Sequence record: OR983334.1
Strand: one strand, 5' to 3'
DNA from: Escherichia phage 1-6bf
DNA: 64,000 nt
Positions 36,529 through 53,518 of this stretch are shown piece after piece. Each line of letters begins with the position of its first letter. The stretch's first letter is position 1. Position numbers and translations under genes: made by a program. A model generated the notes under the pieces. The model worked only from the letters and a program-made list of their open reading frames with translations, ran no database searches and was not told the origin of the DNA.

Positions 36529-37728
36529 ATGTTTCCAGTAACATTAGAAGATACTGAAGGTAATGTTTTAACGGTCAACCCTCCTTGTTATGGGTTCCTT
36601 CAGCTACGCAATTATAACGGGGGCGTTGAGGAAGAGGATGAAGAATATGATGAGTATTACGAACCTAACATGTATGAGGCAACTCATGGATGGAATATGC
36701 ACGTTCGAGTGTGGCATGAAGAAGCTAACGTTCGTAGTGCTGATGGGGAAGAATTCCGATTAAGCAGAGAGATGGATATGTGTAAAATCAAGCATATCTG
36801 GAACTCTGGAACTCATATGAAAATGTTAGGTTTTAGACGTTGGCGCGATGAAAAGCATGTAGCTGAAGCTTTAAGTTGGTGTTCGTATGAAGATGAAGAC
36901 ACGCCCCCTAAGAATAACATTGAACGTTGGAACGACAAAAACCCTGAACATCGAACCACACCTCGTGCTGTACTGGAAGCTATGGAAGCATTTGTGGACA
37001 AAGATCGTCCCTCCTGTTTACGCTGGCACGATAAAGGTTTTATGGGGGTAGCAACTGAGAACATCCCTGCTGATCGTTGTCTGTTCTATTTGATGTTAGA
37101 TCGAACCTTCTATTGTGAAGATGAAGAGAGTCAAGTTGAAACCTTCCTTCATAAATGGTTGGTTGAAGGCTGGACAATCCTTCAGGCTTATGTTTACTCA
37201 CGAATGGTTAGTACCTACACTAACCTCTTGGGGGAAACGAAAGCAACTCTGGTTGGTAATGATTGGGATGCTTGTATCTTCCCAGCGTCGCTGTTTACAG
37301 TCGGCATGGCTGATAAATATGCTGAAGCATTTCAAGTGCCATGGCGTCAACAGTCGTACAGAGATGGCTGTGGTCACTTCCGTGATGAAGATTTTAAGTG
37401 GATTCATTATGAGAATGATGAAACAGCAGAATTACGAGTTAATAACTCAATGTTCTTGCCAGTGATGCACCCCGATCTAGTAGAGAGTGAATCAGAAATC
37501 CTGAAATGTGATAACCTTTTGGTTAACTTTGCTCGTCGTGTCTCTAAAGATGAAAGAACAGCAAATAAATTAGTATATGGCATTCGTGCTGAGACTAAAG
37601 ACCTGTTCAACATCTATAACATTGTTCAGCGATTTAGTAGTGGAACTCTGGACCAAAGTTCGGAGTATTCAGTGATTCCATCCTCTGAGTGGGATGGTGT
37701 TATGAGCGGATTATTTTTAGGAAAATAA
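36529..37728 (+). CDS. Hypothetical protein (399 aa), first gene of amidoligase cluster
   Basis: ORF track; Trp/acidic-rich; no motif recognised. Confidence 0.4.
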   Translation: MFPVTLEDTEGNVLTVNPPCYGFLQLRNYNGGVEEEDEEYDEYYEPNMYEATHGWNMHVRVWHEEANVRSADGEEFRLSREMDMCKIKHIWNSGTHMKMLGFRRWRDEKHVAEALSWCSYEDEDTPPKNNIERWNDKNPEHRTTPRAVLEAMEAFVDKDRPSCLRWHDKGFMGVATENIPADRCLFYLMLDRTFYCEDEESQVETFLHKWLVEGWTILQAYVYSRMVSTYTNLLGETKATLVGNDWDACIFPASLFTVGMADKYAEAFQVPWRQQSYRDGCGHFRDEDFKWIHYENDETAELRVNNSMFLPVMHPDLVESESEILKCDNLLVNFARRVSKDERTANKLVYGIRAETKDLFNIYNIVQRFSSGTLDQSSEYSVIPSSEWDGVMSGLFLGK

Positions 37729-37738
37729 AAGGTTAGTT

Positions 37739-38710
37739 ATGTCAATCTCCACAACGATCGTACCTCTTAACCTTCAACAGGATTTAGGGGAACAGAAGTT
37801 CTTAGGTCGTGGGTGTTTCGGTATCCACAACTACATGCAAGGCCAGTGTGTAAATGACATTAATGGTGAAGTTATCACGGAAGAAGGGCGCTATCGTCGC
37901 TTCAACCGTGATATCAACTTGCAACTGGAGATGTTGAATTACTGGACTCACTCTTTTCATGGTCATGTTACATCTGATATTGAAAAGAATTTGGTTGAAA
38001 CAGCAGACATTATGAACTCCATGTCTTGCTATCGTGACGTATTTACGATCACTTCAGCGAATAGTGTTGCTGTCAACCTTCGTGAGCATCCAGCAGATCA
38101 GATCTTCACAGGACTTATGCTCTTTCGTAGTATTCTGGAAGGGCAATATCGTGGAATGGATTTCCTAGCAGAAGGAATTGAAGACAGGGAAGAGTGGCTG
38201 AAGCGTAAACGCATCGGCATCGCTCTAGTGTTAGCTGGGTTGGGTCGTGACTTCTTCGGTGGATGGTCTCAACGAGGAAGAGCTAATGGGAGTAGCGAAA
38301 GCACCTCTATTGTTATTAACAACAATATGTCAGCAGCAGCATTCCTTCCTTTGGTTGTAGACTCTGATGAATACACGAAGCAAGTATGGGTTCAAAACCC
38401 CTTCGGTGTTGGCGACAACGAGAATGGTTATGTTCGTAACCATAACCAAGATGCCTTACGAAGATTTGCTCGTGCTAAAGATCAAGACCCGGACGAGTAT
38501 GAAACAATGTCAGAGTGGTTAAGACTCTGGTCCAACTGTTATGGTCACAAACGTGAATCAATAGACGACAAGTTGGGAAACATTACAGTACAAAACTTTA
38601 CATCCCGACTGATTCAAAGAACTGGAGCAGATTCCGGTCTTACTCTTGAAGAAGTTGGTAACACAATCTCATCTCTCTTTTCTGAACTAGTGGAGTATTA
38701 CAATGACTAA
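37739..38710 (+). CDS. Hypothetical protein (323 aa), amidoligase cluster
   Basis: ORF track; no motif recognised. Confidence 0.4.
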   Translation: MSISTTIVPLNLQQDLGEQKFLGRGCFGIHNYMQGQCVNDINGEVITEEGRYRRFNRDINLQLEMLNYWTHSFHGHVTSDIEKNLVETADIMNSMSCYRDVFTITSANSVAVNLREHPADQIFTGLMLFRSILEGQYRGMDFLAEGIEDREEWLKRKRIGIALVLAGLGRDFFGGWSQRGRANGSSESTSIVINNNMSAAAFLPLVVDSDEYTKQVWVQNPFGVGDNENGYVRNHNQDALRRFARAKDQDPDEYETMSEWLRLWSNCYGHKRESIDDKLGNITVQNFTSRLIQRTGADSGLTLEEVGNTISSLFSELVEYYND

Positions 38711-39509
38711 GCGCAAATTCCTCATCGGCTCTGACCCTGAAATGTTCGTTCGTACTAGCAATGGTATCATCACTTCTGTAGCCGGTTTATTAGGCTGCTC
38801 TAAGGACGATAAAATCGCTCTGGCTAAGGATGTTCGTCTCCAAGAGGACAATGTACTGGCTGAGTTTGATATTGACCCACAGAGCGGTTTTGAAGCGTTT
38901 AACGATAACATGCAACGTGGTATTGATCTCACCAATAATGTCCTGAACAAACTGGACATGGAAACAGCTCCTGGTGTTAGCTCTCACATCTTCACTGAAG
39001 AAGAGATGAAGACCTTTAATGAATCAGCGTTCATCTTCGGGTGCACTCCTGATTTCAACGCCTTCACTGGTCAGAAAAACCCATCCCCGACTTCTCAGAA
39101 TAAGGGACTTCGTACTGCCGGTGGTCACGTACATCTTGGCGTAGTTGGTGCTTTGGATATCACTCTGCAAACTCAGATGATGCTTGGTGTGCTGTGTGAC
39201 TACTTCCTATCCCTCCCAGCAGTAATTATGGACAAAGATACTCGCCGTAAAGAACTCTACGGTAAAGCATCTGCAATCCGTTATAAAGACTATGGTATTG
39301 AATACCGTTCTCTGTCTAACTTCTGGATTAGTGATCGTGAAAACCGTAAGTTTGTTTACGATCAGGTTGACAAGGTTGTTCAGCAATGTGATATGTCCAC
39401 TCTGATGGCATTGCACTCTCGCCTTCCGATTGAGAAGCTTCATGAAATCATTAACGGGAACAATGTTAAAGAAGCTGACCAGCAGATCAAACTCCTTCAG
39501 GTAGCATAA
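38703..39509 (+). CDS. Divergent amidoligase / GCS2-like COOH-NH2 ligase candidate (268 aa)
   Basis: LIGSDPEMFV .. GGHVHLGV .. YGIEYRS pattern parallels the neighbouring amidoligase; start overlaps upstream gene. Confidence 0.4.
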   Translation: MTKRKFLIGSDPEMFVRTSNGIITSVAGLLGCSKDDKIALAKDVRLQEDNVLAEFDIDPQSGFEAFNDNMQRGIDLTNNVLNKLDMETAPGVSSHIFTEEEMKTFNESAFIFGCTPDFNAFTGQKNPSPTSQNKGLRTAGGHVHLGVVGALDITLQTQMMLGVLCDYFLSLPAVIMDKDTRRKELYGKASAIRYKDYGIEYRSLSNFWISDRENRKFVYDQVDKVVQQCDMSTLMALHSRLPIEKLHEIINGNNVKEADQQIKLLQVA

Positions 39510-39518
39510 GAGGTTATC

Positions 39519-40136
39519 GTGAGCTTAGTAGCTGATTTTTCTCATTACTATAATGGTACATGGATTGCTAAACGAGCAGGTAATATCAACCTTCCATGTT
39601 TTGTGATTGGTGTTGAGCAGAGCGGTAACTTCCGCAGTGATGACTTCTCTCACGAAGCAGAGCAGGCTCTGTACTTTGTTGTAGAGCAGTGGTACAAGAA
39701 CGAGCAAGGGCATCTTCGAAACACTACGATGAATATCCCAGTGTTCGACCCAACCCTGATTCTTGAATCACCTGACGTTGGTTATCTGTTCCATAACGGT
39801 AACACTGTAAGCTGGACTCATATTAACCCTGTTCGCCAGAGAGCAAAGGGCTTAATGGGTAATAAGATTCGAAATGCTCCGGGTGTTGGTCGTGCTATCT
39901 CCGGAGAGATGGTTTACAGTCTGTTCAATCCTGAATTCGAAGGATTGGTTACTCGTTATATTTACATCAACCCTACAGATGGTAAGGTGCATTATAAAGG
40001 TGCACTGGTAGGACAAGTAGATCTGGAAGCACCTCGTGACTCTTACGGTCAGCAACCGATGCGACTTCTGGAACATTTTCATCACATTTCTGAAAACCTT
40101 AGCAATTACAATATTACGTTGGTGGATTCGTTATGA
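39519..40136 (+). CDS. Hypothetical protein (205 aa), amidoligase cluster
   Basis: ORF track. Confidence 0.4.
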   Translation: MSLVADFSHYYNGTWIAKRAGNINLPCFVIGVEQSGNFRSDDFSHEAEQALYFVVEQWYKNEQGHLRNTTMNIPVFDPTLILESPDVGYLFHNGNTVSWTHINPVRQRAKGLMGNKIRNAPGVGRAISGEMVYSLFNPEFEGLVTRYIYINPTDGKVHYKGALVGQVDLEAPRDSYGQQPMRLLEHFHHISENLSNYNITLVDSL

Positions 40137-41236
40137 CAACTGTAGCGCAAACTTTTGGATATCGAGAAGGTCGTTTAACTGAGGCGCATAGTTCAATTGC
40201 ACTTCAGTGCGGTGTCGGTATTGAACTTGAACTCGAAGGTTCCGATCATATCGAAGCAGATATGTGGGATTGTACAGAGGATGGTTCCCTGCGTAATGGT
40301 TGTGAAATGGTATGTTCACGACCTTACAACGGACAGGAGTTGTTAGACGCTATCAACAACCTGAGTGAAGCAGTAGCTGAATCGCACGCCGAGGGGACTT
40401 GGCGTTGCTCTACTCACGTTCATATGGATATGAGGGATGCTGATAGTAATATCCTCAAGAAAACCATTCTCGCTTGGACCTTCTACGAAAAGATGTTGTT
40501 CAAGTGCTCAGGCTACCATCGTTACCGTAGCAATTTCTGCCCTGCGTTTGCAGTGGTACAAGCACAGGTAATGAATGCCTCTGACGCATTTAACTACGAT
40601 GGTGAAGAGTTCTTCAACCGTCTGGTTCGTTCATGGGATAAGTATACATCCCTGAACCTTCTGCCACTTGCCCAATACGGTTCGATTGAGTTCCGTATCA
40701 GCGAGCCTAAGTGGAAACGTGGTCAACTTCTCAATCTGGTTAACCGCTTCTTGATGCTGAAGAAGCTGGCTTTAGATAACGCAGATATGAGCAACGATCA
40801 GTTTGTTGAGCATTTAAATACTGTACGATTTGCCCCAATGCTTCCTTACCTTCCTCTGGATTACAATCTGGATGAATCGGATTTGCATTCAGGTTATTGT
40901 ATGGCCCGTGATGTTTTGTATTGTCGTTCTCATGAAGTAGAACAGTCTGGTCGTATTCGTTTACGTCGAACCAACTCCAACGGAGATGTTCTTGTTGACT
41001 TGCGTCTTATGTCAGACTTCTATGGATTCCTTGGTTATGTCCGAGGGAACGCTAACAACTTGTATCAAGAGATTTTGGTTATGCTTCGTACAGCAGACCT
41101 ATCTCAAGTAAGACACGCTCCAGAACAACGTATCCGTGCTATTTTTGACTTACTACGTGAGTCAGGTCACAGTGATAGCAATATCACAGGGTACATTCCA
41201 GACCATCTGGAAAATCAGTTAGAACAAGCGCTGTAA
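40133..41236 (+). CDS. Amidoligase (glutamine-synthetase-fold COOH-NH2 ligase) (367 aa)
   Basis: CGVGIELELEG .. STHVHMDMRD .. YGSIEFRISE blocks; ATGA overlap with upstream gene. Confidence 0.55.
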   Translation: MTTVAQTFGYREGRLTEAHSSIALQCGVGIELELEGSDHIEADMWDCTEDGSLRNGCEMVCSRPYNGQELLDAINNLSEAVAESHAEGTWRCSTHVHMDMRDADSNILKKTILAWTFYEKMLFKCSGYHRYRSNFCPAFAVVQAQVMNASDAFNYDGEEFFNRLVRSWDKYTSLNLLPLAQYGSIEFRISEPKWKRGQLLNLVNRFLMLKKLALDNADMSNDQFVEHLNTVRFAPMLPYLPLDYNLDESDLHSGYCMARDVLYCRSHEVEQSGRIRLRRTNSNGDVLVDLRLMSDFYGFLGYVRGNANNLYQEILVMLRTADLSQVRHAPEQRIRAIFDLLRESGHSDSNITGYIPDHLENQLEQAL

Positions 41237-41282
41237 TCAATGGGTGCCTCTGACAAAGGGGCACAATTTAAAGGTTAATTAG

Positions 41283-41312
41283 ATGAAAGGGTTTACCCTT
41301 CAGGTGGATTAG
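41283..41312 (+). other. Nine-codon upstream ORF (MKGFTLQVD) ending in TAG, in frame with the glutamine amidotransferase
   Basis: ATG at 41283 with AAAGG RBS; TAG at 41310-41312; in-frame AGGTGG lies 8 nt before ATT 41316. Confidence 0.35.
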
Positions 41313-41315
41313 AAA

Positions 41316-43346
41316 ATTTGTGGCATCGTATTAGCTGGCGGTAATCTGTCAAGCACTGATTTAGACGTATTCAACCAACTCTTTTATGCTGGAGTATTCC
41401 GAGGACAACATTCCTCCGGTATCTTTGGTCAGCGTAAAAGCACTAAGGAAGTCTTCACTTATAAAGAAGCTCTTCCTTCTTTCGCATTCATCCTACAAGA
41501 TGAGTACAAGAAGCACACCACTGGTGAAACAGCTTACACTGTAGCACCTTCATGGATTGTTGGTCACAGTCGTCATGCAACGAAAGGTGCAGTTAACGCC
41601 AAGAACGCCCATCCTTTCCAACATGGTAACATCACTCTGGTTCATAATGGAACCTTGATGGACCAAGATCTGTTACCTGACAGCAAAAGCTTCGAGGTAG
41701 ACAGCGAGAACATCTGCCACTCTATTAACACTATCGGTGCAGCAGAGACTATTCAAAAGCTGGATGGTGCTTTCACCTTAATCTGGCATGATGCTTCTGA
41801 TAACCGCCTTCATATCATTCGTAACGAAGAGCGTCCTTTCCACCTCGCACGTTGTAACAGAGATTGGTTTGGTGCTTCTGAAGAAGATATGTTGATGTGG
41901 ATTCTGAAGCGTTCTAAGTCTCATAAGAACCGTATTGACGAGCATTTTGAATGTAAAGTTGGTACAGAGTATATCTTTGATATGTCAAACAACGGCATGA
42001 CTCTGGTTGAAGAGGTCGCCCACGAGCTTCCGGTTTTTACGGTAGCCAATCGTTGGGGCAGTTATTACTCGAACAACTACAGCCAAAGCAACTATCAAAG
42101 TTCCTCAAAAAGCAGTACAAGCAATCCCTACGACACGAAGCCGGGAGTGACAGCGGCAGATGTTCGTCGAAGAAACGCAGTGGTAAGTCAAAACAAAATC
42201 GCAAGTGATCGAAACATTGATATTCGCCGCGATATGACTGTGGAAATCACTCCGCATGAGTTTGTTCCTTATGCAACTGCTGGTGCTGTTCCTTCTCGTG
42301 GTAAGATGATTGGTTATATCTACGATGAGAAATCTCAAGAGTATATCGAAGGTGATGTCCATAACGTAGATATTAAGGCTTATCAGGATGCCCTGAAAGA
42401 CCCTAAAATTGTTTACCGTGGGACAGTATCCTGTATCTCCGAAGTTAATGCTATGGTTCGCTTAGTGATCACAGCAGGTCGTTTTGTTGACCCATCTCTG
42501 GAGAAAAAGGAGCCTGAGTCTACTACTGCTGACTTTGATGATGATATCCCTTTTGACATGAATGATAGTTTCGTCAACAAGAATGGCGTTACTATCACTC
42601 GTAAATTCTGGGAAGCACATTCTCATGGTGATTGTGGTGGTTGTGACAAACACATTGATTGGAAGGATGCACCTAAAGCAGTCTTCGCATATCAGTGCTA
42701 CTGGCATCCTGAATGTCTGGAAGGTTTGACTAAACCTAAAGAGGAAGAAGAGGAGGAGACTCCTATTGGTGTTTGTGAAATCTGTGGTGAAGTTAAAACA
42801 GAGAATGAGTTCGATGATGAACTTAGTCGTCTTCGCGGTGAAGATATCTGTAAAGCCTGCGCTGTAGAGGTAAAGAAGAAAGTATCTAATGCTACGATCA
42901 AAGATGGTTATGTATGGATTAAAGCAACAGATACAACAAACGCCCGTCGTCCTGAGTTTGCTTTACGTGTAACTGAAGATATGATTGGTCGTATGACTGT
43001 ATTACCTTCCTCAGCGAAACAGACAGGCATCACTCTGGAGGATGTTGTTGATGCTTATGTTGAGAAACGTAGCAACAGTATTTTTGCAATCTCAACTAAG
43101 CCAAAAAAGGAGGAACCTGCTGAGAAAGCAGGTGTGTTTCCTGAATCACGAACAACTCTCCGCAAAACTGTTGTCAGCTTCGACGGAAACCGAAGCACTG
43201 ACTTCACCAAAGCCATGTGGTCAACCCTTGGATACTGCTCAGAGTGTTTTAAGCAGATTCCGTGGCGCGATGCTGAAAGTTGTACGCTTGGTTCTATGAA
43301 TCAAGTTTATTGTAATTCTCCTAAATGTTCATTGAATAGAGGTTAA
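41316..43346 (+). CDS. Class II (Ntn) glutamine amidotransferase domain fused to a ~430 aa Cys-rich C-terminal region; start codon uncertain (ATT or readthrough)
   Basis: Frame reads K-I-CGIVLAGG..VFRGQHSSGIFG..VGHSRHATKGAVNAKNAHPF..LVHNGTL, matching PurF/GlmS-type N-terminal motifs; C-terminal part has several CxxC pairs. Confidence 0.55.
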   Translation: MCGIVLAGGNLSSTDLDVFNQLFYAGVFRGQHSSGIFGQRKSTKEVFTYKEALPSFAFILQDEYKKHTTGETAYTVAPSWIVGHSRHATKGAVNAKNAHPFQHGNITLVHNGTLMDQDLLPDSKSFEVDSENICHSINTIGAAETIQKLDGAFTLIWHDASDNRLHIIRNEERPFHLARCNRDWFGASEEDMLMWILKRSKSHKNRIDEHFECKVGTEYIFDMSNNGMTLVEEVAHELPVFTVANRWGSYYSNNYSQSNYQSSSKSSTSNPYDTKPGVTAADVRRRNAVVSQNKIASDRNIDIRRDMTVEITPHEFVPYATAGAVPSRGKMIGYIYDEKSQEYIEGDVHNVDIKAYQDALKDPKIVYRGTVSCISEVNAMVRLVITAGRFVDPSLEKKEPESTTADFDDDIPFDMNDSFVNKNGVTITRKFWEAHSHGDCGGCDKHIDWKDAPKAVFAYQCYWHPECLEGLTKPKEEEEEETPIGVCEICGEVKTENEFDDELSRLRGEDICKACAVEVKKKVSNATIKDGYVWIKATDTTNARRPEFALRVTEDMIGRMTVLPSSAKQTGITLEDVVDAYVEKRSNSIFAISTKPKKEEPAEKAGVFPESRTTLRKTVVSFDGNRSTDFTKAMWSTLGYCSECFKQIPWRDAESCTLGSMNQVYCNSPKCSLNRG

Positions 43347-43348
43347 GT

Positions 43349-43582
43349 ATGGAAATTCGTAAGATGATGCTGGATAACGTTGTAACTACTCGACGTATCC
43401 CGATGACGAGCACAGGATGTGATAACCTTCGTGCAATCCAAAAGTGGATGCAAGCTGGTATTGGTCAAGTACTTGAAACACAGGTTGAGGTTCCTTTCCC
43501 AACGGTGATCAACAACGTGCTTGCTGATTATGTAAAAATCAAAGGCATTAAGGTAGAACCTCATGTCAAATCTGGTTCCTAA
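43349..43582 (+). CDS. Hypothetical small protein (77 aa)
   Basis: ORF track. Confidence 0.35.
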   Translation: MEIRKMMLDNVVTTRRIPMTSTGCDNLRAIQKWMQAGIGQVLETQVEVPFPTVINNVLADYVKIKGIKVEPHVKSGS

Positions 43583-43787
43583 GAAACCAAAGATCACTCT
43601 CCTACAGTATTATATGGGAGTTCATATCGAATTAGTAACGGAGCAGCGAAAGCTGTATCCGTTCGCTTTCGGTCTGATTGATGCACCATCCGATGAAGTA
43701 GAGAACGATGCGTTCAACGACTACTTCGAAATTGAAGCTCAGATTCAAAAAACTCGTAACGAAATTCTTAAACTTAAAGGTATCTAA
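43563..43787 (+). CDS. Hypothetical small protein (74 aa)
   Basis: ORF track. Confidence 0.35.
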   Translation: MSNLVPKKPKITLLQYYMGVHIELVTEQRKLYPFAFGLIDAPSDEVENDAFNDYFEIEAQIQKTRNEILKLKGI

Positions 43788-43789
43788 CA

Positions 43790-44986
43790 ATGACTACTCG
43801 TATCCGTGTTCTTCCTTATGGCCCTTCCGATTCAGTTCGTGAACTTACTTCTGCAATTAATACTAAGATTCAGGAACTCCGCTTAAATGCTAACGTAATG
43901 TCTTTGGTATCAGAAGGCTCTCGTTATCGTTCTCGAGCTGGTGATATTGTTGTAAACTATGGCAACCGCCGTTATGATGCTTCTTTCTTTGGTGGTGCAA
44001 CCGTATTGAACCCTGTTGAAGCTCTGAACCGAGCGGCTAACAAGATTGCAGCGTTCAACGCATTGCGTTTGGCTGAAGTTAAGACTGTTGAATACACTAT
44101 CGATCACGAATTAGCTCTGAACTGGAACCGAACCGAAATTGTTTATGAACGTGCAACCTTAACTGGTCACTCTGGTGAAGGTATCACCGTTCGTCTTCCG
44201 GGAGAAGGTGTTGCAAGTGCTCCTCTGTATACGAAAGGTATTCAAGGCCCACGTCGTGAATGGCGTGTTCATGTGTTTGAAGGTGTTATCACTTACGTTC
44301 AGAAGAAGATTCGTCGTAATGGATATCGTGAACTGGAAAGCTACCGTGAAGATATTCGTAACCATCACACTGGTTGGGTTTATTCTAACGCATTCACTGA
44401 AGCTCCTCCTGATCAAGTTCTGATTCAAGCTCACAAAGCTGTATCTGCTCTGGGCTTAAACTTCGGTGCTGTTGATCTGATTAGTAAAGGGAATAACGCT
44501 TGGGTTCTGGAAGTAAATACAGCTCCGGGACTGACTGGTACAACTCTGGAGACTTACACTCACAATATCGTTGAGTTTGTTAAGAGCTTCTCTGGTGTTG
44601 AACCTGACTATCGTGTTGCTTACCAACTGCCTGTTGAAGAAGTGGAAGAAGAATTTGCTGAATCAGCAGATGATGAGAACTTTGCATTAACAGCTGAGCC
44701 AGTTGCTGAAGAATCTTCGGAACCTGTTCCTGAAACGATGCAAGTTGAAGAGCAAGGGTTAGAGATCACCCCGATCACCCGTCGTAATCTGCGTCGTGGT
44801 TATTACATCGCTAACATCAAGCATCCTGAAAACGGTTCAACTGTAGCAAGTAACGTAATTGTTTTCTTCTGCGGTCGTAACTTCTACCGCTCTGGCTGGA
44901 ATGCTCCAATTAGTGATCGTCAGCTTGGTCGTGTGTTGCAGATTAATAGCATTACCCTGAATGATGGCACTGTTGTAAACTACTAA
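43790..44986 (+). CDS. ATP-grasp ligase (RimK-like) with acidic C-terminal region (398 aa)
   Basis: TLTGHSGEGITV Gly-rich loop, EWRVHVFEGV, FGAVDLI..WVLEVNTAPGL Mg/ATP-binding block. Confidence 0.6.
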   Translation: MTTRIRVLPYGPSDSVRELTSAINTKIQELRLNANVMSLVSEGSRYRSRAGDIVVNYGNRRYDASFFGGATVLNPVEALNRAANKIAAFNALRLAEVKTVEYTIDHELALNWNRTEIVYERATLTGHSGEGITVRLPGEGVASAPLYTKGIQGPRREWRVHVFEGVITYVQKKIRRNGYRELESYREDIRNHHTGWVYSNAFTEAPPDQVLIQAHKAVSALGLNFGAVDLISKGNNAWVLEVNTAPGLTGTTLETYTHNIVEFVKSFSGVEPDYRVAYQLPVEEVEEEFAESADDENFALTAEPVAEESSEPVPETMQVEEQGLEITPITRRNLRRGYYIANIKHPENGSTVASNVIVFFCGRNFYRSGWNAPISDRQLGRVLQINSITLNDGTVVNY

Positions 44987-44992
44987 GGATAT

Positions 44993-45241
44993 ATGGATAT
45001 GTTTTCATTGGAAGATCTAGTACAAAATGGAATGATGGAACAAAAAGAGCCTCTGACTGTAGGCTCTCGTAAAGAGTTGCGTAAGTTGTGTGAAGAATGG
45101 GGTATTACTAATCAGCGAATGATTGGTAATCAGTTCTCTGCAATTGTAACTTTCCTGAAACGTGGTGATAAGTATTCTATGGAATGTGTAGAACGTATCA
45201 TCACTGAAGCACAACAAGACAAGGGAGTGACCTATCTGTGA
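44993..45241 (+). CDS. Hypothetical protein (82 aa)
   Basis: ORF track. Confidence 0.3.
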   Translation: MDMFSLEDLVQNGMMEQKEPLTVGSRKELRKLCEEWGITNQRMIGNQFSAIVTFLKRGDKYSMECVERIITEAQQDKGVTYL

Positions 45242-45423
45242 ATAAGTATAAAGTTCTGTTTAAAGATACCAATACCGCTGGTGAAATGCGAGCTATGGAC
45301 CTCGATGCTGATATGTTTAACTTCACTGATGGCAAAGTGGCCTTCTTTCAAGGAAGTGAAGCTATTGCAGTGTTTGAAAGTGCAGCGATCTGTGGCGTAA
45401 TCAAAATCTTTATTACAGAGTAA
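45238..45423 (+). CDS. Hypothetical protein (61 aa)
   Basis: ORF track. Confidence 0.3.
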   Translation: MNKYKVLFKDTNTAGEMRAMDLDADMFNFTDGKVAFFQGSEAIAVFESAAICGVIKIFITE

Positions 45424-45492
45424 TCTGCTTTAGCCTCTTCGAAAGAGGAGGCTAGTTCGGATAAACTAAACAAACCAACAAAGGTATAGATA

Positions 45493-45912
45493 ATGTCAGA
45501 AGTAATTTACGTAGCAACTTATGGTTCTCTTCGTCGTGGTCAAGCTAACTATTTAGTTAATGACCGAGCTGGTGCTAAGTCAATTGGTGAAGGTTGGACT
45601 GAAGACAACTTCGATCTGTTCCGTTATGGTGGTTCCTACTTCCCAAGCATCTCTCTCACACACAGCAATAATAATAAGCCTGTTCGTGTAGAAGTGTTTG
45701 CTACTGACAAAGCAGGTCTGGAAGGTCCGTATGACCGTCTGGAAGGTTACAACAAACATAGCCCTGAAGACAGCTTCTATCAGCGTACTCAGATTGCTGT
45801 TAAGATGGACTCAGGTGAAACTGTTATCGCTTGGATTTATCACATCGACAAAGAACAAGACGTTCTGGTTGAATCTGGCGACTGGTCAGAGTATCTGAAA
45901 AGTGAATCTTGA
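45493..45912 (+). CDS. Gamma-glutamyl cyclotransferase-like (AIG2/GGCT family) protein (139 aa)
   Basis: N-terminal VATYGSLRRGQANY and later YDRLEGY, matching the YGSL / catalytic-Glu pattern. Confidence 0.5.
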   Translation: MSEVIYVATYGSLRRGQANYLVNDRAGAKSIGEGWTEDNFDLFRYGGSYFPSISLTHSNNNKPVRVEVFATDKAGLEGPYDRLEGYNKHSPEDSFYQRTQIAVKMDSGETVIAWIYHIDKEQDVLVESGDWSEYLKSES

Positions 45913-46131: not shown

Positions 46132-47922
46132 ATGTCAAAGATCATTTTGGGAGACACAGGTTGTAAGGAATGTATCTCTCATGGTCGTGATAAAACCCAC
46201 AACCACATGATTCTCTTCCGTAACGAAGAGACAGGTGAGGAGTGGGGAAGTTGTAACCGTTGTGGGAATTACGAAGTGTTCGAAAAGGGCACTACACCTA
46301 CTCCAAACGAGAGAAAAGAGTTATCCCCTGAAGAGTTGAGAGAAGTCTTAGATGATTGCTTAGAGCTTCCTCAGGGAGAGCTTACTCGACGTTTAATCCC
46401 CAAAGCTGTATCAGAGCGTTTTGAGTGTCGCATCGGTCTAAGCCAGACTGATGGGCAGACTCCAGACAGCTACTTCTTTCCTCGTGAACGTGATGGAAAC
46501 ATTGTTGGTTACGAGGTTAAGCTGCTAGATAGTAAGAAGTTTTATTATGTCGGCAGTGTGAAAGAAGCAGATTTATTTGGTATGGCACAAGCTCAACGTG
46601 GAGATGTGTACAACAAGAAGCTCTTCATTTTTGAAGACCCGCTATCTTGTATGTCTGGTTTCCATGTCCTCACAGCTTTTACAAATGCAACAAACATTAA
46701 ACCAGCATGTGTTTCTTTACCGTTCGGTGCAGGTTCAATCTCTTCTGTGTTGTCTCGTAACCGAGACTTCGTAAATGGTTTTGAGGAGGTTGTGCTCTGC
46801 ATGGACAACGATGATGCAGGTGAGATAGCTTTAACAAAAGGTCGTTCTTTATTCCCTCATGTTAAGTTTGCTCGTATTCCTAAAGGAACTTTCCCATACA
46901 ACGGTGTGGAGAAAGAGATTAAGGATGCGAATGACATGCTTCTGTCTGGTCGTGGTCAAGAGTTATTCAACATTCTCAAGTACTCAGCAAAGCGGGAATC
47001 TCCTGCTGGAGCTGTAACAATCTTTGATTGCCTTGATGATGCTCTGAAGAAAGCGGAGTGGGGTATCCCATATCCGTGGAAGACTCTGAATGAGATGACC
47101 TTCGGTATTCGATGGGGAGAGGTGGTAGCAATTGGTGGTGGAGTAGGGAGTGGTAAAACACTCATTGCTCACGAGCTGGTTGCCCATCTGTGCTTAGAGC
47201 ATGGTTTTAATGGAGGTGGCTTCTTCTTGGAAGAGAAGGTAGGCATGTCTGTTAAGAACATTGCTGGTAAGTCAGCATCAATTCCTTTCCACCGACCTGA
47301 TGTTGAATATGATGAGGAGGATTTGCGTAATGAAGCACTTCGTTATGCAGACAAATTCTTCTTGTATGACAACTTCGGACAGAACGAATGGGAAGACATT
47401 AAACAGTGTATCCGTTTCTGGGTAGTTGAAAACCAGTGTAAGTTCATCATCCTTGATAACATTACCGCTCTGGTGTCTCATTTAACACCTTCAGAGATTA
47501 ACACTGAAATCAGTAAGATTGCTTCCGAGCTTGCTGGTATGTGTAAAGAATTAGACTTTACCGCTTTCGTGCTATCTCACCTTAATGCTCCGGCAGGTGG
47601 TGCTCCTCATGAAGAAGGTGGACAGGTACGTGAAGTACAGTTCACTGGCTCTCGTTCTCTTATGCGTTGGTGTCAGTGTATCATTGGCTTTGAGCGTGAC
47701 AAGCAAGCTGATGGCTTAGCTAAGAACATCTCAGTCATTCGATTGCTGAAAGAGCGTAACTATGGTCAGACTGGTGTCTGTTATACTAAGTATATCAGTG
47801 AAACCGGTAGGCTTGTAGAAAGGGAAGACTTTGAAGTCGATGAAGATAATCCATTCGTTTTAACTAATGGAGAGGATGCAGCTTCTCTCGTCAACCAAGC
47901 AGATGGAGCTTCACCGTGGTAA
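46132..47922 (+). CDS. DNA primase-helicase (T7 gene 4-like)
   Basis: N-terminal zinc ribbon CKEC..CNRCGN, central primase region, helicase Walker [10 protein letters not shown] and Walker B-like IILDNIT. Confidence 0.7.
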
Positions 47923-48473
47923 AGAAAAAGAAGAAAGTGTTTGCATTCGATATCGAGAGTAATGCACTGTACGATGACATAACTAAAGTATGGTGTATTT
48001 ATATCTTCGATGTTGAAACTGGTGAAAGGTGGGGCTATCGGCCTCACCAAATCGAAGACGGGATTCGTAAACTGACAGAAGCAGATGTGCTCGTGGGTCA
48101 TAATATTATTGACTTCGACTTACCTGCTCTGAAGAAGATGTATCCCTCTTTGATTAAATATAATTTTAACGTCTTTGACACTTTATGTCTTAGTCGATAT
48201 CTTAAACCTGACCGTATTGGTGACAGTCCTGAGTATCCGAAAGGCGACCCTAGACGTGGCCCAAGGGGTCATGGCTTGAAGCAGTGGGGTGAGTTCTTAG
48301 GAGAACTTAAGGGCGATTATGGTGAGCAAGAGGAAGCATGGGATGCTTTCACTGAAGATATGTTTACTTATTGTGAACAGGACGTTAACTTAACTGTTAA
48401 GGTTTATCTTTTCTTGTGTGAAATCACAGGATTTGACCCTTACGACCCACCTTCATTATATTGGAAAATGTAA
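47916..48473 (+). CDS. DNA polymerase 3'-5' exonuclease domain as a separate gene (185 aa)
   Basis: FDIESNAL (Exo I), [43 protein letters not shown] align by eye with the T7 DNA polymerase N-terminal domain. Confidence 0.7.
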
Positions 48474-48474
48474 A

Positions 48475-49824
48475 ATGATTGTTATCCCGATTAACCGAAT
48501 TGAAGATAAGGTTGCTCAACAACCTGATATCACTGTTGGTCGTCACTTCATTGAACAGCTGATTAACAACAACTTGATTCCAGACTGTATTTGTCCTATC
48601 ATCACTGGTGGGGCTATTCGTGATGCTGTGCTTAATAACACAGCTCCGCATGACATTGATATCTTTATTGTCAGAGGACAGGCCCCAAGAACTCGAAATA
48701 CTTTCATCCGTCATGAGCAGTGGCAAGATCTCGGACGAGAAGTTGAAAGTAACGTTAAAGAGTGGCTTGAGTCTCAAGATATTGAATATGCATCACTTCT
48801 TGCTGAAGCTACAAACGAATCCTATGCTGGGGGTTCTCAATTAACATTCACTGATATTATTGAGTTTCAGTGGAATGGGGTTCGTATCCAATTCATGTTT
48901 AATTATCCTACTTCTATCGAAGAGGTATTGGATAACTTTCCTATGATGTGCCGTGGTGCGATGACTCTTGACAACTTATTCATGACTTCTCACGGATACT
49001 TGGCTATGACTGCCCCTTGTCCAGTGGTTGTTTCTAGTCGTGAAATCAGGTATGTTCACAAGAAGTGGCCTAATTCACAAGTGTTGAGATTTTCCTCTCC
49101 AGCAGTTGCACATCAATACATGGCCCAAACTCGATATCTTCCCACACCTCAGCCAGTTAGTCACCTAGTCAATGGATTAGGTCAGGTTTCTCTTATTGAA
49201 GATACAACAAGTGCTCTATATTGTGTTAACCGAGACATGAGTCTATTCTTTGGAATCCCTTATGAAGAGATTCAGATTATGTCTAGTCTTCACGGTTCCG
49301 GTCAGATTCATGCGTATTGGTCTGAAGGGTTGACAAATTTAACGACTAATACAGGAGGAGATCTACTTGGTCGAGAAGAAGAGCCTAGTCGTCATAACGC
49401 AATCGAAGGGGTGTTTGTAGCCCCTACAAGACGCCGAGCAAACGAAGCACGAAATATAAGCTCTACTCGTAGAACATCTTTTGAAGAAGCTCTTGGTATT
49501 ACAAGTGATTCTATGGAGAGATGGATGGCTAGTCCTTCTCGTGGTCGACCAAACGGCTTCAATGTTAGTGCACGTCAGTTCTCTGGTCAGGGTTTCGCTG
49601 TTGGTGATATCAACGCTCCTTCTCGTGTTATCTGGACTGATGAAGGCGTGGCTCAAGATGTGGTAGGTAGTCTCTCCGATCTTGATATTCCTTCTCATGA
49701 CGAACTCGCTGAGACTGTCAGCCGCAGTCTCGCTGATCGGTTTGTTGCCAACAATCCTGAAGTATTAGAGCCTCAGGTTGGTGGAGAACTGGACCACTTA
49801 ATAAATTCACAAAACATTCGCTAA
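48475..49824 (+). CDS. Pol-beta-type nucleotidyltransferase with CCA-adding-enzyme-like head motif (about 450 aa)
   Basis: ITGGAIRDAVLNNTAPHDIDIF matches the GGxVRD..DxD head motif; rest divergent; ATG at 48475 right after exonuclease stop. Confidence 0.45.
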   Translation: MIVIPINRIEDKVAQQPDITVGRHFIEQLINNNLIPDCICPIITGGAIRDAVLNNTAPHDIDIFIVRGQAPRTRNTFIRHEQWQDLGREVESNVKEWLESQDIEYASLLAEATNESYAGGSQLTFTDIIEFQWNGVRIQFMFNYPTSIEEVLDNFPMMCRGAMTLDNLFMTSHGYLAMTAPCPVVVSSREIRYVHKKWPNSQVLRFSSPAVAHQYMAQTRYLPTPQPVSHLVNGLGQVSLIEDTTSALYCVNRDMSLFFGIPYEEIQIMSSLHGSGQIHAYWSEGLTNLTTNTGGDLLGREEEPSRHNAIEGVFVAPTRRRANEARNISSTRRTSFEEALGITSDSMERWMASPSRGRPNGFNVSARQFSGQGFAVGDINAPSRVIWTDEGVAQDVVGSLSDLDIPSHDELAETVSRSLADRFVANNPEVLEPQVGGELDHLINSQNIR

Positions 49825-49836
49825 TAAGGAAAAAGA

Positions 49837-50370
49837 ATGAGTTTACTAGGAAGTATTGAACTGCACGATGTAATTGACAATGGTTATCTGGATGCGGAGC
49901 ATAAGTATGTTAACGCTGCTAGTGTGGATATCCGTATTGGTGATACTATCCTTGTTGAAGAACAGGCTGATGGCATCGTTGATATTGATGCGAAAGAAAA
50001 TCTTCAGTGGAAGGAAGTAAAGATTCCTGAAGAGGGTTTGGTTATCACTCCGGGTCAGTTCTTCTTGGCTCACTCTATGGAGGAGTTTAATCTTCCAGAT
50101 AACATCTCAAGTCTGTTTGTTCTGCGTTCATCTATGGCTCGTTGTGGTTTGAACCACCTCCATGCTGGTTGGGCTGATGCAGGATTTAATAGTAGTAAGC
50201 TGACATTTGAATTCCACAACGTAACCAAGCACCATAGCTTACGAGTTCGTGCTGGTATGCGTGTTGGTCAAATGGTTATGTTCGAGCACTCTCATGCAGG
50301 GGAACACTCCTATGCAGTGAAGGGTCGTTATAATAACTCTGAAGGTGTAGTTTCATCTAAAGGTGTGTAA
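49837..50370 (+). CDS. dcd: dCTP deaminase family protein
   Basis: VDIRIGD .. SSMARCGL .. GRYNNSEG align by eye with dCTP deaminase / dUTPase-fold blocks. Confidence 0.65.
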   Translation: MSLLGSIELHDVIDNGYLDAEHKYVNAASVDIRIGDTILVEEQADGIVDIDAKENLQWKEVKIPEEGLVITPGQFFLAHSMEEFNLPDNISSLFVLRSSMARCGLNHLHAGWADAGFNSSKLTFEFHNVTKHHSLRVRAGMRVGQMVMFEHSHAGEHSYAVKGRYNNSEGVVSSKGV

Positions 50371-51059: not shown

Positions 51060-51389
51060 ATGTTAGATTTGAGTAAAGTGGCCCCGCCCACTGAAGAGAT
51101 TACAAAATCCAAGGTGATGCAACAGTTTTATCATCGTGATATGCTTGGTCGCTTTATCAAGAATCGTGATGTTGTTGCTTGGTCTATTGGGAATCAGGGA
51201 TATCTGTTGAAGGTTCTTCAGGTTACAGGTTCAACTGCTAAGCGAGTTAAGGTGTATGACCCTGAAATGGGGCGTTCTAAGTCAGTAGACCCACAGAACT
51301 GCATCGTAATTACCCAGCAGGTAATGGATAATATTGCACGTAACGTTGCTAACTCAGTTGAACTGGATGGAGAAAACCCAAATGCATAA
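51060..51389 (+). CDS. Hypothetical protein (109 aa)
   Basis: ORF track. Confidence 0.35.
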   Translation: MLDLSKVAPPTEEITKSKVMQQFYHRDMLGRFIKNRDVVAWSIGNQGYLLKVLQVTGSTAKRVKVYDPEMGRSKSVDPQNCIVITQQVMDNIARNVANSVELDGENPNA

Positions 51390-51945
51390 GAATGTTTTTG
51401 ATTTACCTGAGATCGGTCGTGACAGTTATAGCATGTTAGACCGGTCCGACCTATCAATCTCTCGCCTTGAAACAATGCAGGGTATGATTAGTGGAAACAG
51501 CCTAGAACACATCCTGAGCTGCTTACAAGCTAACATGGAACTCTTGCATATCAAAGCTAAAAACTACCACTGGAACGTCTCTGGTGCAGGATTTCAAGGT
51601 GTTCATGGTATGTTTGATGAGCTGGAAGATTACGCACGACAGGTAGGAGATCGTATTGCTGAACGTATGCGTTACCACTGTGTTAAAGTGGATGCTACAG
51701 CAGCTAACTATCTCTCTCATGCTTGGTTCTCAGAGGGTAATGCTGATCTAGACATGGACGGTATGCTCTCTGATATGTGCATGACCTTGATGTGTATTAT
51801 TGAGAAGATGGATGAGTTTGATGGTGATTTAGCCACCTACCCTGTCGATCAGAGTATGCTTCAAGAAATTAATGAAGGTCTTGGCAAGTATTGCTACTTC
51901 GTCAAGAGCAACATGTCCCATTCAAGTGGTGACGTGTCTTACTAA
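51382..51945 (+). CDS. Dps-like ferritin-fold protein
   Basis: LHIKAKNYHWNVSGAGFQGVHGMFDELEDY matches the Dps signature (HWN..G..F..H..FDE); start taken at ATG 51382. Confidence 0.6.
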   Translation: MHKNVFDLPEIGRDSYSMLDRSDLSISRLETMQGMISGNSLEHILSCLQANMELLHIKAKNYHWNVSGAGFQGVHGMFDELEDYARQVGDRIAERMRYHCVKVDATAANYLSHAWFSEGNADLDMDGMLSDMCMTLMCIIEKMDEFDGDLATYPVDQSMLQEINEGLGKYCYFVKSNMSHSSGDVSY

Positions 51946-52861: not shown

Positions 52862-53518
52862 ATGAATGAACAACTACAAGCAACATTAATCGAAGCTATG
52901 GGAAGTGACAAATCTGTAGTCAATGCAGCTAGAGTATCTTTCGGTGTTGTTCGAGAAGGTGACTTAAATGAGAGAGACACAAAACTTATCAACTTCCTTG
53001 CACGGGAAAAACACTGTACTCCATTCCGACACCCGCAAGTCAGTTTCCGATGCAAAGCACCTATCGCAATTGCGAGACAGCTGGGAAAGCATCAGGTTGG
53101 ATTCTCGTGGAACGAAATGTCCCGGCGGTATAAAGATGGAGCAGTTGAAGTCTTCATCCCTAAAGAGATTTTTGCGAGACCTTCGGACCTCCATGCAGGT
53201 TCAGGGATTCAACTCATCGACGGAGAGCGAGCTGAAGCATTAATGTTGATTAATGATGCATATGAAGCTTCTTTAGCAGCATATGATAAGTTGATTGAAT
53301 TTATTGCACCAGAGCAAGCTCGATTTGTTCTTCCTCAGGGGATGATCACTGAGTGGGTGTGGACTGGTTCTTTGTATGGCTGGTTTGAGTTGTGCCGTCA
53401 GCGACTATCCTCTCACGCTCAATATGAAGTTCGAGTGTTTGCTAAATCCGTAGATGAAGAGATGGCTAAGCTCTACCCAATCTCGTGGGCAGCTCTGAAG
53501 AAAACTTTGGAGAATTAA
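52862..53518 (+). CDS. ThyX-like flavin-dependent thymidylate synthase homolog with non-canonical KHQ in place of RHR
   Basis: VNAARVSFG, TPFRH, KAPIAIARQLGKHQVGFSWNEMSRRY, LSSHAQYE align by eye with ThyX blocks; RHR replaced by KHQ. Confidence 0.55.
   Translation: MNEQLQATLIEAMGSDKSVVNAARVSFGVVREGDLNERDTKLINFLAREKHCTPFRHPQVSFRCKAPIAIARQLGKHQVGFSWNEMSRRYKDGAVEVFIPKEIFARPSDLHAGSGIQLIDGERAEALMLINDAYEASLAAYDKLIEFIAPEQARFVLPQGMITEWVWTGSLYGWFELCRQRLSSHAQYEVRVFAKSVDEEMAKLYPISWAALKKTLEN

Follow-up and report, generated by a model that had tools for sequence, protein, structure and literature searches.

What would a short-tailed bacteriophage make with three ATP-dependent ligases, a glutamine amidotransferase and a gamma-glutamyl cyclotransferase encoded side by side? 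The question is raised by positions 36,529 to 45,912 of a 64,000-nucleotide stretch of Escherichia phage 1-6bf (sequence record OR983334.1), which was analyzed as a whole and is called the window here. A preliminary description, made from the letters of the window, had seen in this block of genes (the cassette) an ATP-driven pathway for making amide or peptide bonds and trimming them, and domains, gene order and catalytic signatures all support that view. Its caution that the substrate is not deducible from sequence is upheld as well. We read the cassette as a single pathway in which an amine acceptor would be gamma-glutamylated, then elaborated or amidated, and finally freed of the gamma-glutamyl group, and we give this reading a probability of roughly 0.55.

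Gene order is one line of evidence that the cassette is a unit. All open reading frames (ORFs) of the block are on the plus strand and densely packed, with start/stop overlaps at 38703/38710, 40133/40136, 43563/43582 and 45902/45912, so the co-oriented, overlapping arrangement had been described correctly. A comparative set of 88 loci was assembled from 9 annotated phage loci and 79 IMG/VR loci found with the profile of the ligase encoded by ORF C, and ORFs in all 88 were labelled by family profiles (Table 1). Scanning IMG/VR with the ligase profile returned at least 523 relatives. The order C-D-E-F-I is repeated in the great majority of the 88 loci (approximately 85, from widely differing podophages) and is kept even where protein identity falls to 25-45%. 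Because the same genes occur in the same order across unrelated phage groups, their clustering is far beyond chance. A primase/helicase gene is located downstream in 51 loci and is annotated in this position in SU10, Ab22, tf, RIO-1 and K4.

Cleavage of gamma-glutamyl bonds provides the second line of evidence. ORF L matches PF06094 (GGACT) at 63.5 bits versus 22.8 (3.6e-17), with a conserved Y10-G-x-L13 segment (including G11) and an invariant D81-x-L-E84-G85 that holds the catalytic Glu, E84. The largest unlabelled family upstream of the ligase in the comparative set is Peptidase_C26 (1.3e-17), which has the gamma-glutamyl hydrolase/class I amidotransferase fold, conserves G-x-C-x-G and H-P-E across the set and is also represented by gp21 of phage K4; precomputed annotations show it too. 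GGACT is present in 41 loci and Peptidase_C26 in 43, but only 3 loci have both. Six have neither, and three of those six are visibly cut within the cassette or at its edge. GGACT and C26 are unrelated, and they substitute for each other in the cassette. Because two unrelated cleaving enzymes alternate almost perfectly, there is strong evidence that the pathway forms an L-gamma-glutamyl amide bond and later breaks it, and that this cleavage is obligatory. Catalytic signatures are kept across the set in every enzyme family.

Identity of the block places the window taxonomically. Its DNA is 98.6% identical to that of Escherichia phage 1-6af and approximately 95% identical to that of SU10, ES17, Bas90 and Bas91 (the last two from the BASEL collection); therefore, the window is from a Kuravirus (phiEco32/SU10-like podovirus, Gordonclarkvirinae). 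The block is the already-described phiEco32-type amidoligase/gamma-glutamyl operon, a computational prediction that is rediscovered here. It has a PF14395 gene, a PF12224 gene directly followed by a class II amidotransferase gene, and an ATP-grasp and a gamma-glutamyl-cleaving enzyme in the same unit, and it is located in the early or middle region, upstream of the primase/helicase gene. The same gene content and order are seen in RIO-1, LUZ24-like phages, tf, PA11/K4 and 7-11-like phages. The block shows no essential difference from this operon, to which Gordonclarkvirinae have added ORFs A, B and H, two small ORFs, a Zn-ribbon-rich amidotransferase tail and an AUU start. Phage phiEco32 is the founding member of PF14395, whose Pfam name is “phage phiEco32-like COOH.NH2 ligase type 2.”

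Predictions for this operon have been in the literature for some time. As relayed in later papers (PMC10580990; PMC11318856), Iyer, Abhiman, Burroughs and Aravind (2009) predicted that the amidoligase and amidotransferase of phiEco32 modify the cell wall and prevent superinfection. Duhaime et al. (2017) described a seven-gene “peptidoglycan modification cassette,” relayed the proposal of Iyer (2009) and Hardies (2013), and listed the cassette as conserved in RIO-1, phiEco32, 7-11, PA11, tf, MR299-2, LUZ24, PaP3 and CW02 (PMC5498523). The novelty implied by the preliminary description is therefore lost: the cassette was predicted in 2009 in the same phage genus, is named in PF14395, and has been discussed as a shared podovirus operon (PMC4819975; PMC5498523; PMC7082346). 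Full-text literature searches, in which Iyer (2009) and Savalia (2008) were represented by secondary sources only, found no experimental characterization of the cassette. Our additions to the earlier work are the recurrent gene order across loci, the GGACT/C26 alternation, the conserved catalytic signatures and the AUU start.

Expression data are available from two relatives. Proteomics of a polyethylene glycol-precipitated SU10 lysate detected the amidotransferase (9 peptides), the ATP-grasp protein (6), GGACT (2) and the amidoligase (1), and these proteins were classed among “early gene products” (PMC4281155). Homologous genes of Pseudoalteromonas phage HP1 “were expressed immediately” (PMC7082346). 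Searches inside the cassette for promoters, terminators and the phiEco32 gp36 promoter motif gave nothing above chance. Most simply read, the pathway is early and predicted to be cytoplasmic, with no detectable secretion or virion role.

COOH-NH2 ligases of two families are encoded in the cassette. The preliminary description had named two such homologs, a class II amidotransferase and a cyclotransferase, and PF14395, PF12224, GATase_6/7 and PF06094 all scored above their cut-offs. ORF C matches PF14395 (COOH-NH2_lig) at 34 bits against a cut-off of 25 (2.3e-8) and PHROG 3815 at 3e-118; residues invariant in the family are D11-P-E13, K34, D49, E54, C114, H142-x-H144, R182 and E200-Y-R202. ORF E belongs to the amidoligase family, matching PF12224 (Amidoligase_2) at 33.5 bits against a cut-off of 22 (5.3e-8) as well as PHROG 7469, and it is 98.9% identical to the phiEco32 protein. 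The GIELELEG, HVHMD and IEFR blocks noted earlier in E fall on family-invariant columns, and its near-invariant residues are G29-x-E31-x-E33-x-E35, S52, E58, H95-x-H97, E119, R130 and E186-F-R188. Between C and E no relationship was detected (hhalign probability 0.2%), and a profile search for relatives of either family with solved structures returned none by sequence. In other phages, Amidoligase_2 ends in Phe in 16 of 82 proteins compared to 7% of neighboring proteins (p = 6e-4, relatedness ignored; for example, L003 8509-10212, L006 6956-8221 and L008 7001-7951). Some amidoligases of other phages also carry acidic tails (…EEDDDTANF, …EDSTTW, …DEVPF) reminiscent of those through which SSB and T7 gp2.5/gp4 bind their partners. 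An acidic SSB-like tail was considered as a link to the replisome and rejected, being absent from the Kuravirus protein and too weak.

ORF D had been listed among the ORFs without a recognizable domain. It is a widely conserved core member of the cassette and not an orphan, found in 73 of the 88 loci. It is predicted to form small beta-barrels with a conserved basic loop (P-x-R106-Q-W-K-K/R-G111) and is probably a non-catalytic Tudor/KOW/SH3-like module of the macromolecule-binding kind. The tip of its YYKG hairpin resembles the modified loop of EF-P, which prompted the idea of a lysine-acylated carrier protein. That idea was rejected, as K160 and K110 are freely swapped for Arg among 66 sequences.

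Class II amidotransferases use an N-terminal cysteine as the nucleophile, and ORF F has this residue at position 2, within (M/I)-C-G-I-V at 41316-41330. The amidotransferase domain spans residues 1 to approximately 230; residues 76-193 match GATase_6 (54 bits, 1.7e-14) and GATase_7 (3.8e-6), the NCBIfam model of the GlmS N-domain scores 2.5e-11, and the glutamine-site segment HSRHATKG…NAHP…VHNG…DSE, with its Arg, Asn-Gly oxyanion hole and Asp, aligns to the GlmS glutaminase domain 1xff. The E and F genes adjoin in most loci examined. Residues 231-676 of F (approximately 440 residues) contain three C2-C2 pairs and are lineage-specific; amidotransferases of other lineages have different C-terminal regions. 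This part of F matched no Pfam or NCBIfam family and showed no recognizable acceptor (synthase) domain, and the acceptor of F may be the separate amidoligase instead of a fused domain. Searching 1.84 billion representative proteins for relatives of the C-terminal region returned only 13, of which all but one align at an equivalent place, behind approximately 230 N-terminal residues; therefore, they provide no independent context for the Cys-rich region.

Translation of F begins at an unusual codon. Its domain had been assigned correctly, but its start needs correction: the reading frame has no ATG, GTG or TTG start, an ATT precedes the catalytic Cys, and two codons upstream the frame is closed by a TAG stop. 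In 12 of approximately 80 homologous genes, from at least seven unrelated phage lineages, a non-canonical codon (11 ATT and one ATC) precedes the Cys. None of the 12 has an in-frame upstream ATG, GTG or TTG, and in every one a Shine-Dalgarno-like run of purines is found 6-9 nt upstream, often in the form AAA-AUU-UGU-GG. The non-canonical start is thus recurrent, and it probably restrains translation. The leader between E and F is predicted to form one hairpin directly after the E stop and a second that pairs the Shine-Dalgarno sequence GGUGGA (minimum free energy -26 kcal/mol, z = -2.0). A mini-ORF of nine codons (MKGFTLQVD; AUG at 41283, UAG at 41310-41312) runs across the second hairpin, leaving 4 nt between its stop codon and the AUU. 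The mini-ORF and hairpin suggest translational coupling or reinitiation, a role that we infer from their layout.

ATP-grasp ligases are represented by ORF I. As a single sequence, I scores under the Pfam cut-offs (Dala_Dala_lig_C, 18.4 versus 24 bits; RimK, 16.9 versus 21 bits). A profile of seven I orthologs matches RimK/alpha-L-glutamate ligase structures over 217 positions (40-257) at 2.5e-6; NCBIfam returns MptN at 2.6e-8 (33 versus 350 bits) and rimK_fam at 6.6e-7 (29 versus 143 bits), and PHROG 2599 matches at 8e-185. Because of the family profile, the MptN match and PHROG 2599, assignment of I to ATP-grasp at the level of sequence is secured, as had been proposed. With E placed among the amidoligases and I in ATP-grasp, the preliminary description passes both profile-based checks that it had set for itself. 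Invariant residues among 76 sequences are K85, R121, G129/G131, E157, R159, K173, D229 and E241-x-N243. The ATP-grasp region covers residues 1 to approximately 265 and is followed by an acidic linker and a C-terminal domain of approximately 80 residues. The matches point to a RimK-type-like ligase that nevertheless lies outside the curated RimK family thresholds.

Smaller and faster-evolving genes complete the block. The preliminary description had listed ORFs A, B and D and the pair G/H as lacking recognizable domains. This held for A, which has no Pfam, NCBIfam or PADLOC match, and for B, whose predicted structure (predicted local distance difference test 68.7, predicted template modelling score 0.75) has no fold match, but G is a DUF7195 protein. 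G sits between the amidotransferase and ATP-grasp genes in a subset of lineages. It was considered as a Pup- or LysW-like C-terminal tag and rejected, as its C-termini vary (SGS, KV, H, RK, E) and the gene is missing in most lineages. ORF A is weakly linked (hhalign probability 21-29%) to proteins of approximately 300 residues that 7-11-like phages encode ahead of the ligase. ORF B is weakly linked to proteins of similar length at the same position in Moazamivirus and Lahexavirus (profile-profile probability 46-47%), which in turn match a family present in 17 loci (95%). From the profile links of B and this 17-locus family, it is probable that A and B belong to one fast-evolving family of approximately 300 residues that accompanies the cassette. 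The two small ORFs between I and L are probably outside the cassette core. Ten cassette ORFs scanned against the PADLOC library gave no matches.

Table 1. Features of the cassette and its surroundings in the window, with the number of comparative loci in which each family was found.
Feature	Position	Strand	Assignment	Basis or remark	Loci (of 88)
ORF A	36529..37728	+	399 aa, function unknown	PHROG 13063; acidic N-terminal stretch	7; by sequence Gordonclarkvirinae only
ORF B	37739..38710	+	323 aa, function unknown	Fast-evolving	7; by sequence Gordonclarkvirinae only
ORF C	38703..39509	+	268 aa, phiEco32-type COOH-NH2 ligase type 2 (predicted carboxylate-amine ligase)	PF14395, PHROG 3815	87
ORF D	39519..40136	+	205 aa, GTG start, conserved non-enzymatic ligase partner	Predicted beta-barrels	73
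ORF E	40133..41236	+	367 aa, Amidoligase_2, predicted ATP-dependent carboxylate-amine/-ammonia ligase	PF12224, PHROG 7469	87
Leader of amidotransferase gene	41237..41315	+	Intergenic	Sequence, RNA fold	
ORF F	41316..43346	+	676 aa, class II (N-terminal nucleophile, Ntn) glutamine amidotransferase and ~440-aa Cys-rich region	GATase_6/7	82
ORF G	43349..43582	+	77 aa, DUF7195 small protein	PF23825, 4.7e-17	21
ORF H	43563..43787	+	74 aa, function unknown, Gordonclarkvirinae only	PHROG 13464; 6 loci	
ORF I	43790..44986	+	398 aa, RimK/MptN (alpha-L-glutamate ligase)-type ATP-grasp	Family profile, NCBIfam, PHROG 2599	79
Two small ORFs	44993..45423	+	82 and 61 aa, Kuravirus-specific	Homologs in SU10-like loci only	
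ORF L	45493..45912	+	139 aa, GGACT/AIG2-like gamma-glutamyl(amine) cyclotransferase	PF06094	
Primase/helicase	46132..47922	+	Start of replication module	DnaB_C, 9e-11	
Further non-canonical amidotransferase starts			In other loci	L008, L012, L017, L025, L047, L072, L074, L076, L085	

Together, these families suggest a sequence of reactions. The three ATP-dependent ligases (C, E and I) would each form amide bonds, as judged from their families. The PF14395 ligase C may act with its beta-barrel partner D, and the PF12224 amidoligase E with the adjacent amidotransferase F. F could deliver glutamine-derived ammonia to an activated carboxylate, or it could hydrolyze a gamma-glutamyl amide in the manner of EgtC. 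The RimK/MptN-like protein I would add an amino acid, probably glutamate, to a carboxylate. The last enzyme would cleave the L-gamma-glutamyl-amine bond, a GGACT releasing 5-oxoproline in this phage and a C26 hydrolase in others. The gamma-glutamyl group would then serve for a time only, as a handle or as a tag that can be taken off, and the pathway may be an immediate host-takeover function.

Several points weigh against this reading. The order of reactions and the acceptor are drawn by analogy, as are the substrates. Assignment of C and E to the glutamine synthetase (GS) fold relies on Pfam families that have no sequence-detectable solved structure. Glutamate as the substrate of I is a guess, because the scores of I are far under the RimK and MptN equivalog cut-offs. 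F may be an ammonia donor or a second gamma-glutamyl hydrolase, and its sequence does not choose between them. In addition, gene content would be identical for a removable tag, a biosynthetic handle and a turnover enzyme.

Candidates for the acceptor can be graded, each of them short of even odds. A host or phage protein or another macromolecule is our tentative preference. This slight tilt toward a macromolecule is due to the conserved binding module D and the lineage-variable accessory domains around conserved catalytic cores. A free peptide or amine metabolite is plausible at a somewhat lower level, a peptidoglycan precursor is plausible but less likely still, and DNA or a nucleotide is very unlikely. 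One specific form of the pathway, which we regard as doubtful, is non-ribosomal tagging of a macromolecule, in which a gamma-glutamyl-linked amidated peptide would be placed onto a host protein right after infection. The target might belong to the machinery of translation, transcription or replication; D, the variable proteins A and B, and the Zn-ribbon and acidic modules would recognize it, and GGACT or C26 would serve as eraser. A bolder variant, with phage DNA as the target of tagging and restriction resistance of Gordonclarkvirinae as the outcome, is highly improbable.

Four other explanations of the cassette deserve consideration. According to one of them, the target of remodelling is the stem peptide of peptidoglycan or a cytoplasmic precursor of it, so that the cell surface is altered and superinfection by other phages is blocked. 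Peptidoglycan stems contain a gamma-glutamyl amide, and some bacteria amidate the glutamate with the MurT/GatD pair. ATP-grasp I also resembles D-Ala-D-Ala ligases, hosts of the cultured phages among the fetched loci are Gram-negative, and immediate-early expression would suit an exclusion function. However, neither a Mur-type ligase nor a transpeptidase is encoded in the cassette, nor is any membrane or periplasmic component. GGACT and C26 act on L-gamma-glutamyl amides, whereas the linkage in peptidoglycan is gamma-D-glutamyl. The benefit of wall remodelling is also hard to see for virulent phages with short cycles, and this explanation accounts neither for the beta-barrel partner nor for the variable extensions (Zn-ribbon and acidic). 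Although it is the published proposal (Iyer, 2009, and Hardies, 2013, as relayed in PMC5498523, PMC10580990 and PMC11318856), we consider it unlikely. Tagging of proteins, in which the ligases would modify a protein of the host or phage with glutamate or a short peptide in the manner of RimK or PafA and GGACT/C26 would reverse or trim the modification, comes out about equally low. RimK, which glutamylates ribosomal protein S6, is among the closest characterized relatives of I, and the characterized substrate class of GGACT is gamma-glutamyl-epsilon-lysine. D has the character of a macromolecule-binding module. Conserved catalytic cores combined with a lineage-variable F tail, I linker and C-terminal domain, A and B are what host-specific target recognition would be expected to produce. 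Yet there is no conserved tag protein (DUF7195 is missing in most lineages, and its C-terminus is not conserved), and D lysines are interchangeable with Arg, so D is not the acyl acceptor. The RimK match is distant, and no modified protein has been reported. The view that these are independent auxiliary metabolic genes that are merely adjacent, with no common pathway, can draw on the fact that Amidoligase_2 and others also occur alone (for example, in a Porphyromonas prophage). Five to seven genes in constant order across approximately 85 loci at 25-45% protein identity, with GGACT and C26 compensating for each other, are at odds with this view, and synteny has effectively refuted it.

Modification of DNA is the remaining alternative, and the preliminary description had offered amino-acid decoration of a DNA base as one example of what the pathway might do. 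By this account, a base or nucleotide decorated with an amino acid would explain the broad restriction resistance of Gordonclarkvirinae, and the cassette does adjoin the primase/helicase gene upstream of it in most lineages. The window retains 10 EcoRI, 33 EcoRV and 8 EcoKI sites, so site avoidance was rejected as the cause of the resistance of Kuraviruses to restriction-modification systems. Nevertheless, there is no hydroxymethylase, DNA kinase, transglycosylase or glycosylase-like gene in or beside the cassette. Among the cassette ORFs and ten larger downstream replication/nucleotide ORFs scanned, no base-activating or base-exchanging enzyme was found (pyrimidine hydroxymethylase, 5-hydroxymethyldeoxyuridine DNA kinase, DpdA/TGT or Mom-type acyltransferase). 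To our knowledge, no GS-fold or ATP-grasp ligase has been described that uses a DNA base as substrate. The window also encodes an ordinary ThyX (3.3e-43) and dCTP deaminase (3.6e-34). Finally, phage tf has a complete cassette, and its virion DNA was cut by RsaI, HpaI, EcoRV, SmaI and HaeIII, ligated and cloned (PMC3517423). Because tf DNA is cut by five restriction enzymes, global DNA modification is disfavored, and we regard this explanation as very unlikely.

Restriction and nucleotide metabolism in these phages have features of their own. Gordonclarkvirinae resisted restriction-modification systems in vivo in the BASEL study. Compared to a first-order Markov expectation, the window has 10 CCWGG (Dcm) sites versus approximately 83, no PstI sites versus approximately 15, one BamHI site versus approximately 10, and 157 GATC sites versus approximately 249. 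Downstream of the split DNA polymerase exonuclease gene, 48418-50370 and 52862-53518 encode a 468-aa CCA-adding/poly(A)-polymerase-like nucleotidyltransferase (weak PolyA_pol match, 7.7e-4), the dCTP deaminase and ThyX. Authors of the BASEL study suspected that the nucleotidyltransferase and dCTP deaminase replace T by dU in the DNA; a ThyX gene in the window speaks for ordinary synthesis of dTMP. The replication region also encodes a 203-aa ferritin/Dps-like protein (51334-51945, 3e-7), whose SU10 homolog is annotated as DNA-binding and is abundant in the SU10 proteome. Salvage genes for nicotinamide adenine dinucleotide (NAD), namely ribose-phosphate pyrophosphokinase and nicotinate or nicotinamide phosphoribosyltransferase, flank the cassette in Aeromonas phage LAh_9 (L004 13130-16268) and Salmonella phage SE131 (L003 1-1665). 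They are probably an unrelated module against NAD depletion.

Comparison with characterized systems helps to place the proposed gamma-glutamylation pathway. The glutathione cycle likewise combines a ligase of the GS/glutamate-cysteine ligase (GCS) fold (GshA), an ATP-grasp enzyme that extends the C-terminus (GshB) and a cyclotransferase that releases 5-oxoproline. It differs in that the phage ligases belong to PF14395 and PF12224 and are accompanied by an extra ligase, a class II amidotransferase and a non-catalytic partner; in Pfam and NCBIfam searches, no cassette protein showed sequence-level membership in GshA or GshB. Three other pathways use gamma-glutamyl as a handle: PuuA/PuuD pairs a GS-like ligase with a C26 hydrolase (putrescine), BtrJ/BtrG an ATP-grasp enzyme with a gamma-glutamyl cyclotransferase (butirosin side chain), and EgtA/EgtC a GCS-type ligase with a class II amidotransferase-like amidohydrolase (ergothioneine). 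Each has an ATP-dependent gamma-glutamylating ligase and a dedicated remover, and all three types of remover occur in the phage cassettes. The resemblance is in logic only and implies no membership, the EgtC model scoring 20 bits versus a cut-off of 219. Unlike these pathways, the phage genes have no accompanying carrier protein, decarboxylase or oxygenase. The tf record lists a BtrG-like InterPro signature on its AIG2 protein.

Other comparisons concern amidation and tagging. In MurT/GatD, which acts on lipid II, and asparagine synthetase B, as in the cassette, a carboxylate-activating ligase is encoded together with a glutaminase. MurT/GatD consists of a Mur ligase and a class I amidotransferase, whereas the phages have a GS-fold amidoligase; in asparagine synthetase B the class II domain is fused to an adenylating synthetase, whereas F is fused to a region with no recognizable family. 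Pupylation (the PafA ligase and the deamidase/depupylase Dop) shares with the cassette two GS-fold paralog-like proteins, gamma-glutamyl-amine chemistry and a removal activity. It differs in its tag, as the cassette encodes no Pup-like protein with a conserved C-terminal Gly-Gly-Gln/Glu, and C and E are not related to PafA by sequence search.

Among enzyme operons of short-tailed phages whose function is at most predicted, the cassette is one of the most widespread, and its hosts include E. coli, Pseudomonas and marine Proteobacteria. Its genes are also among the first to be expressed, and its function has been a prediction since 2009. The GGACT/C26 alternation provides a concrete handle, a pathway that must pass through an L-gamma-glutamyl-amine intermediate, and Kuraviruses that infect E. 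coli K-12 (Bas86-Bas94) make genetics feasible. Determining the function would reveal new host-takeover chemistry, acting on proteins or metabolites, or a new mechanism of envelope or DNA protection.

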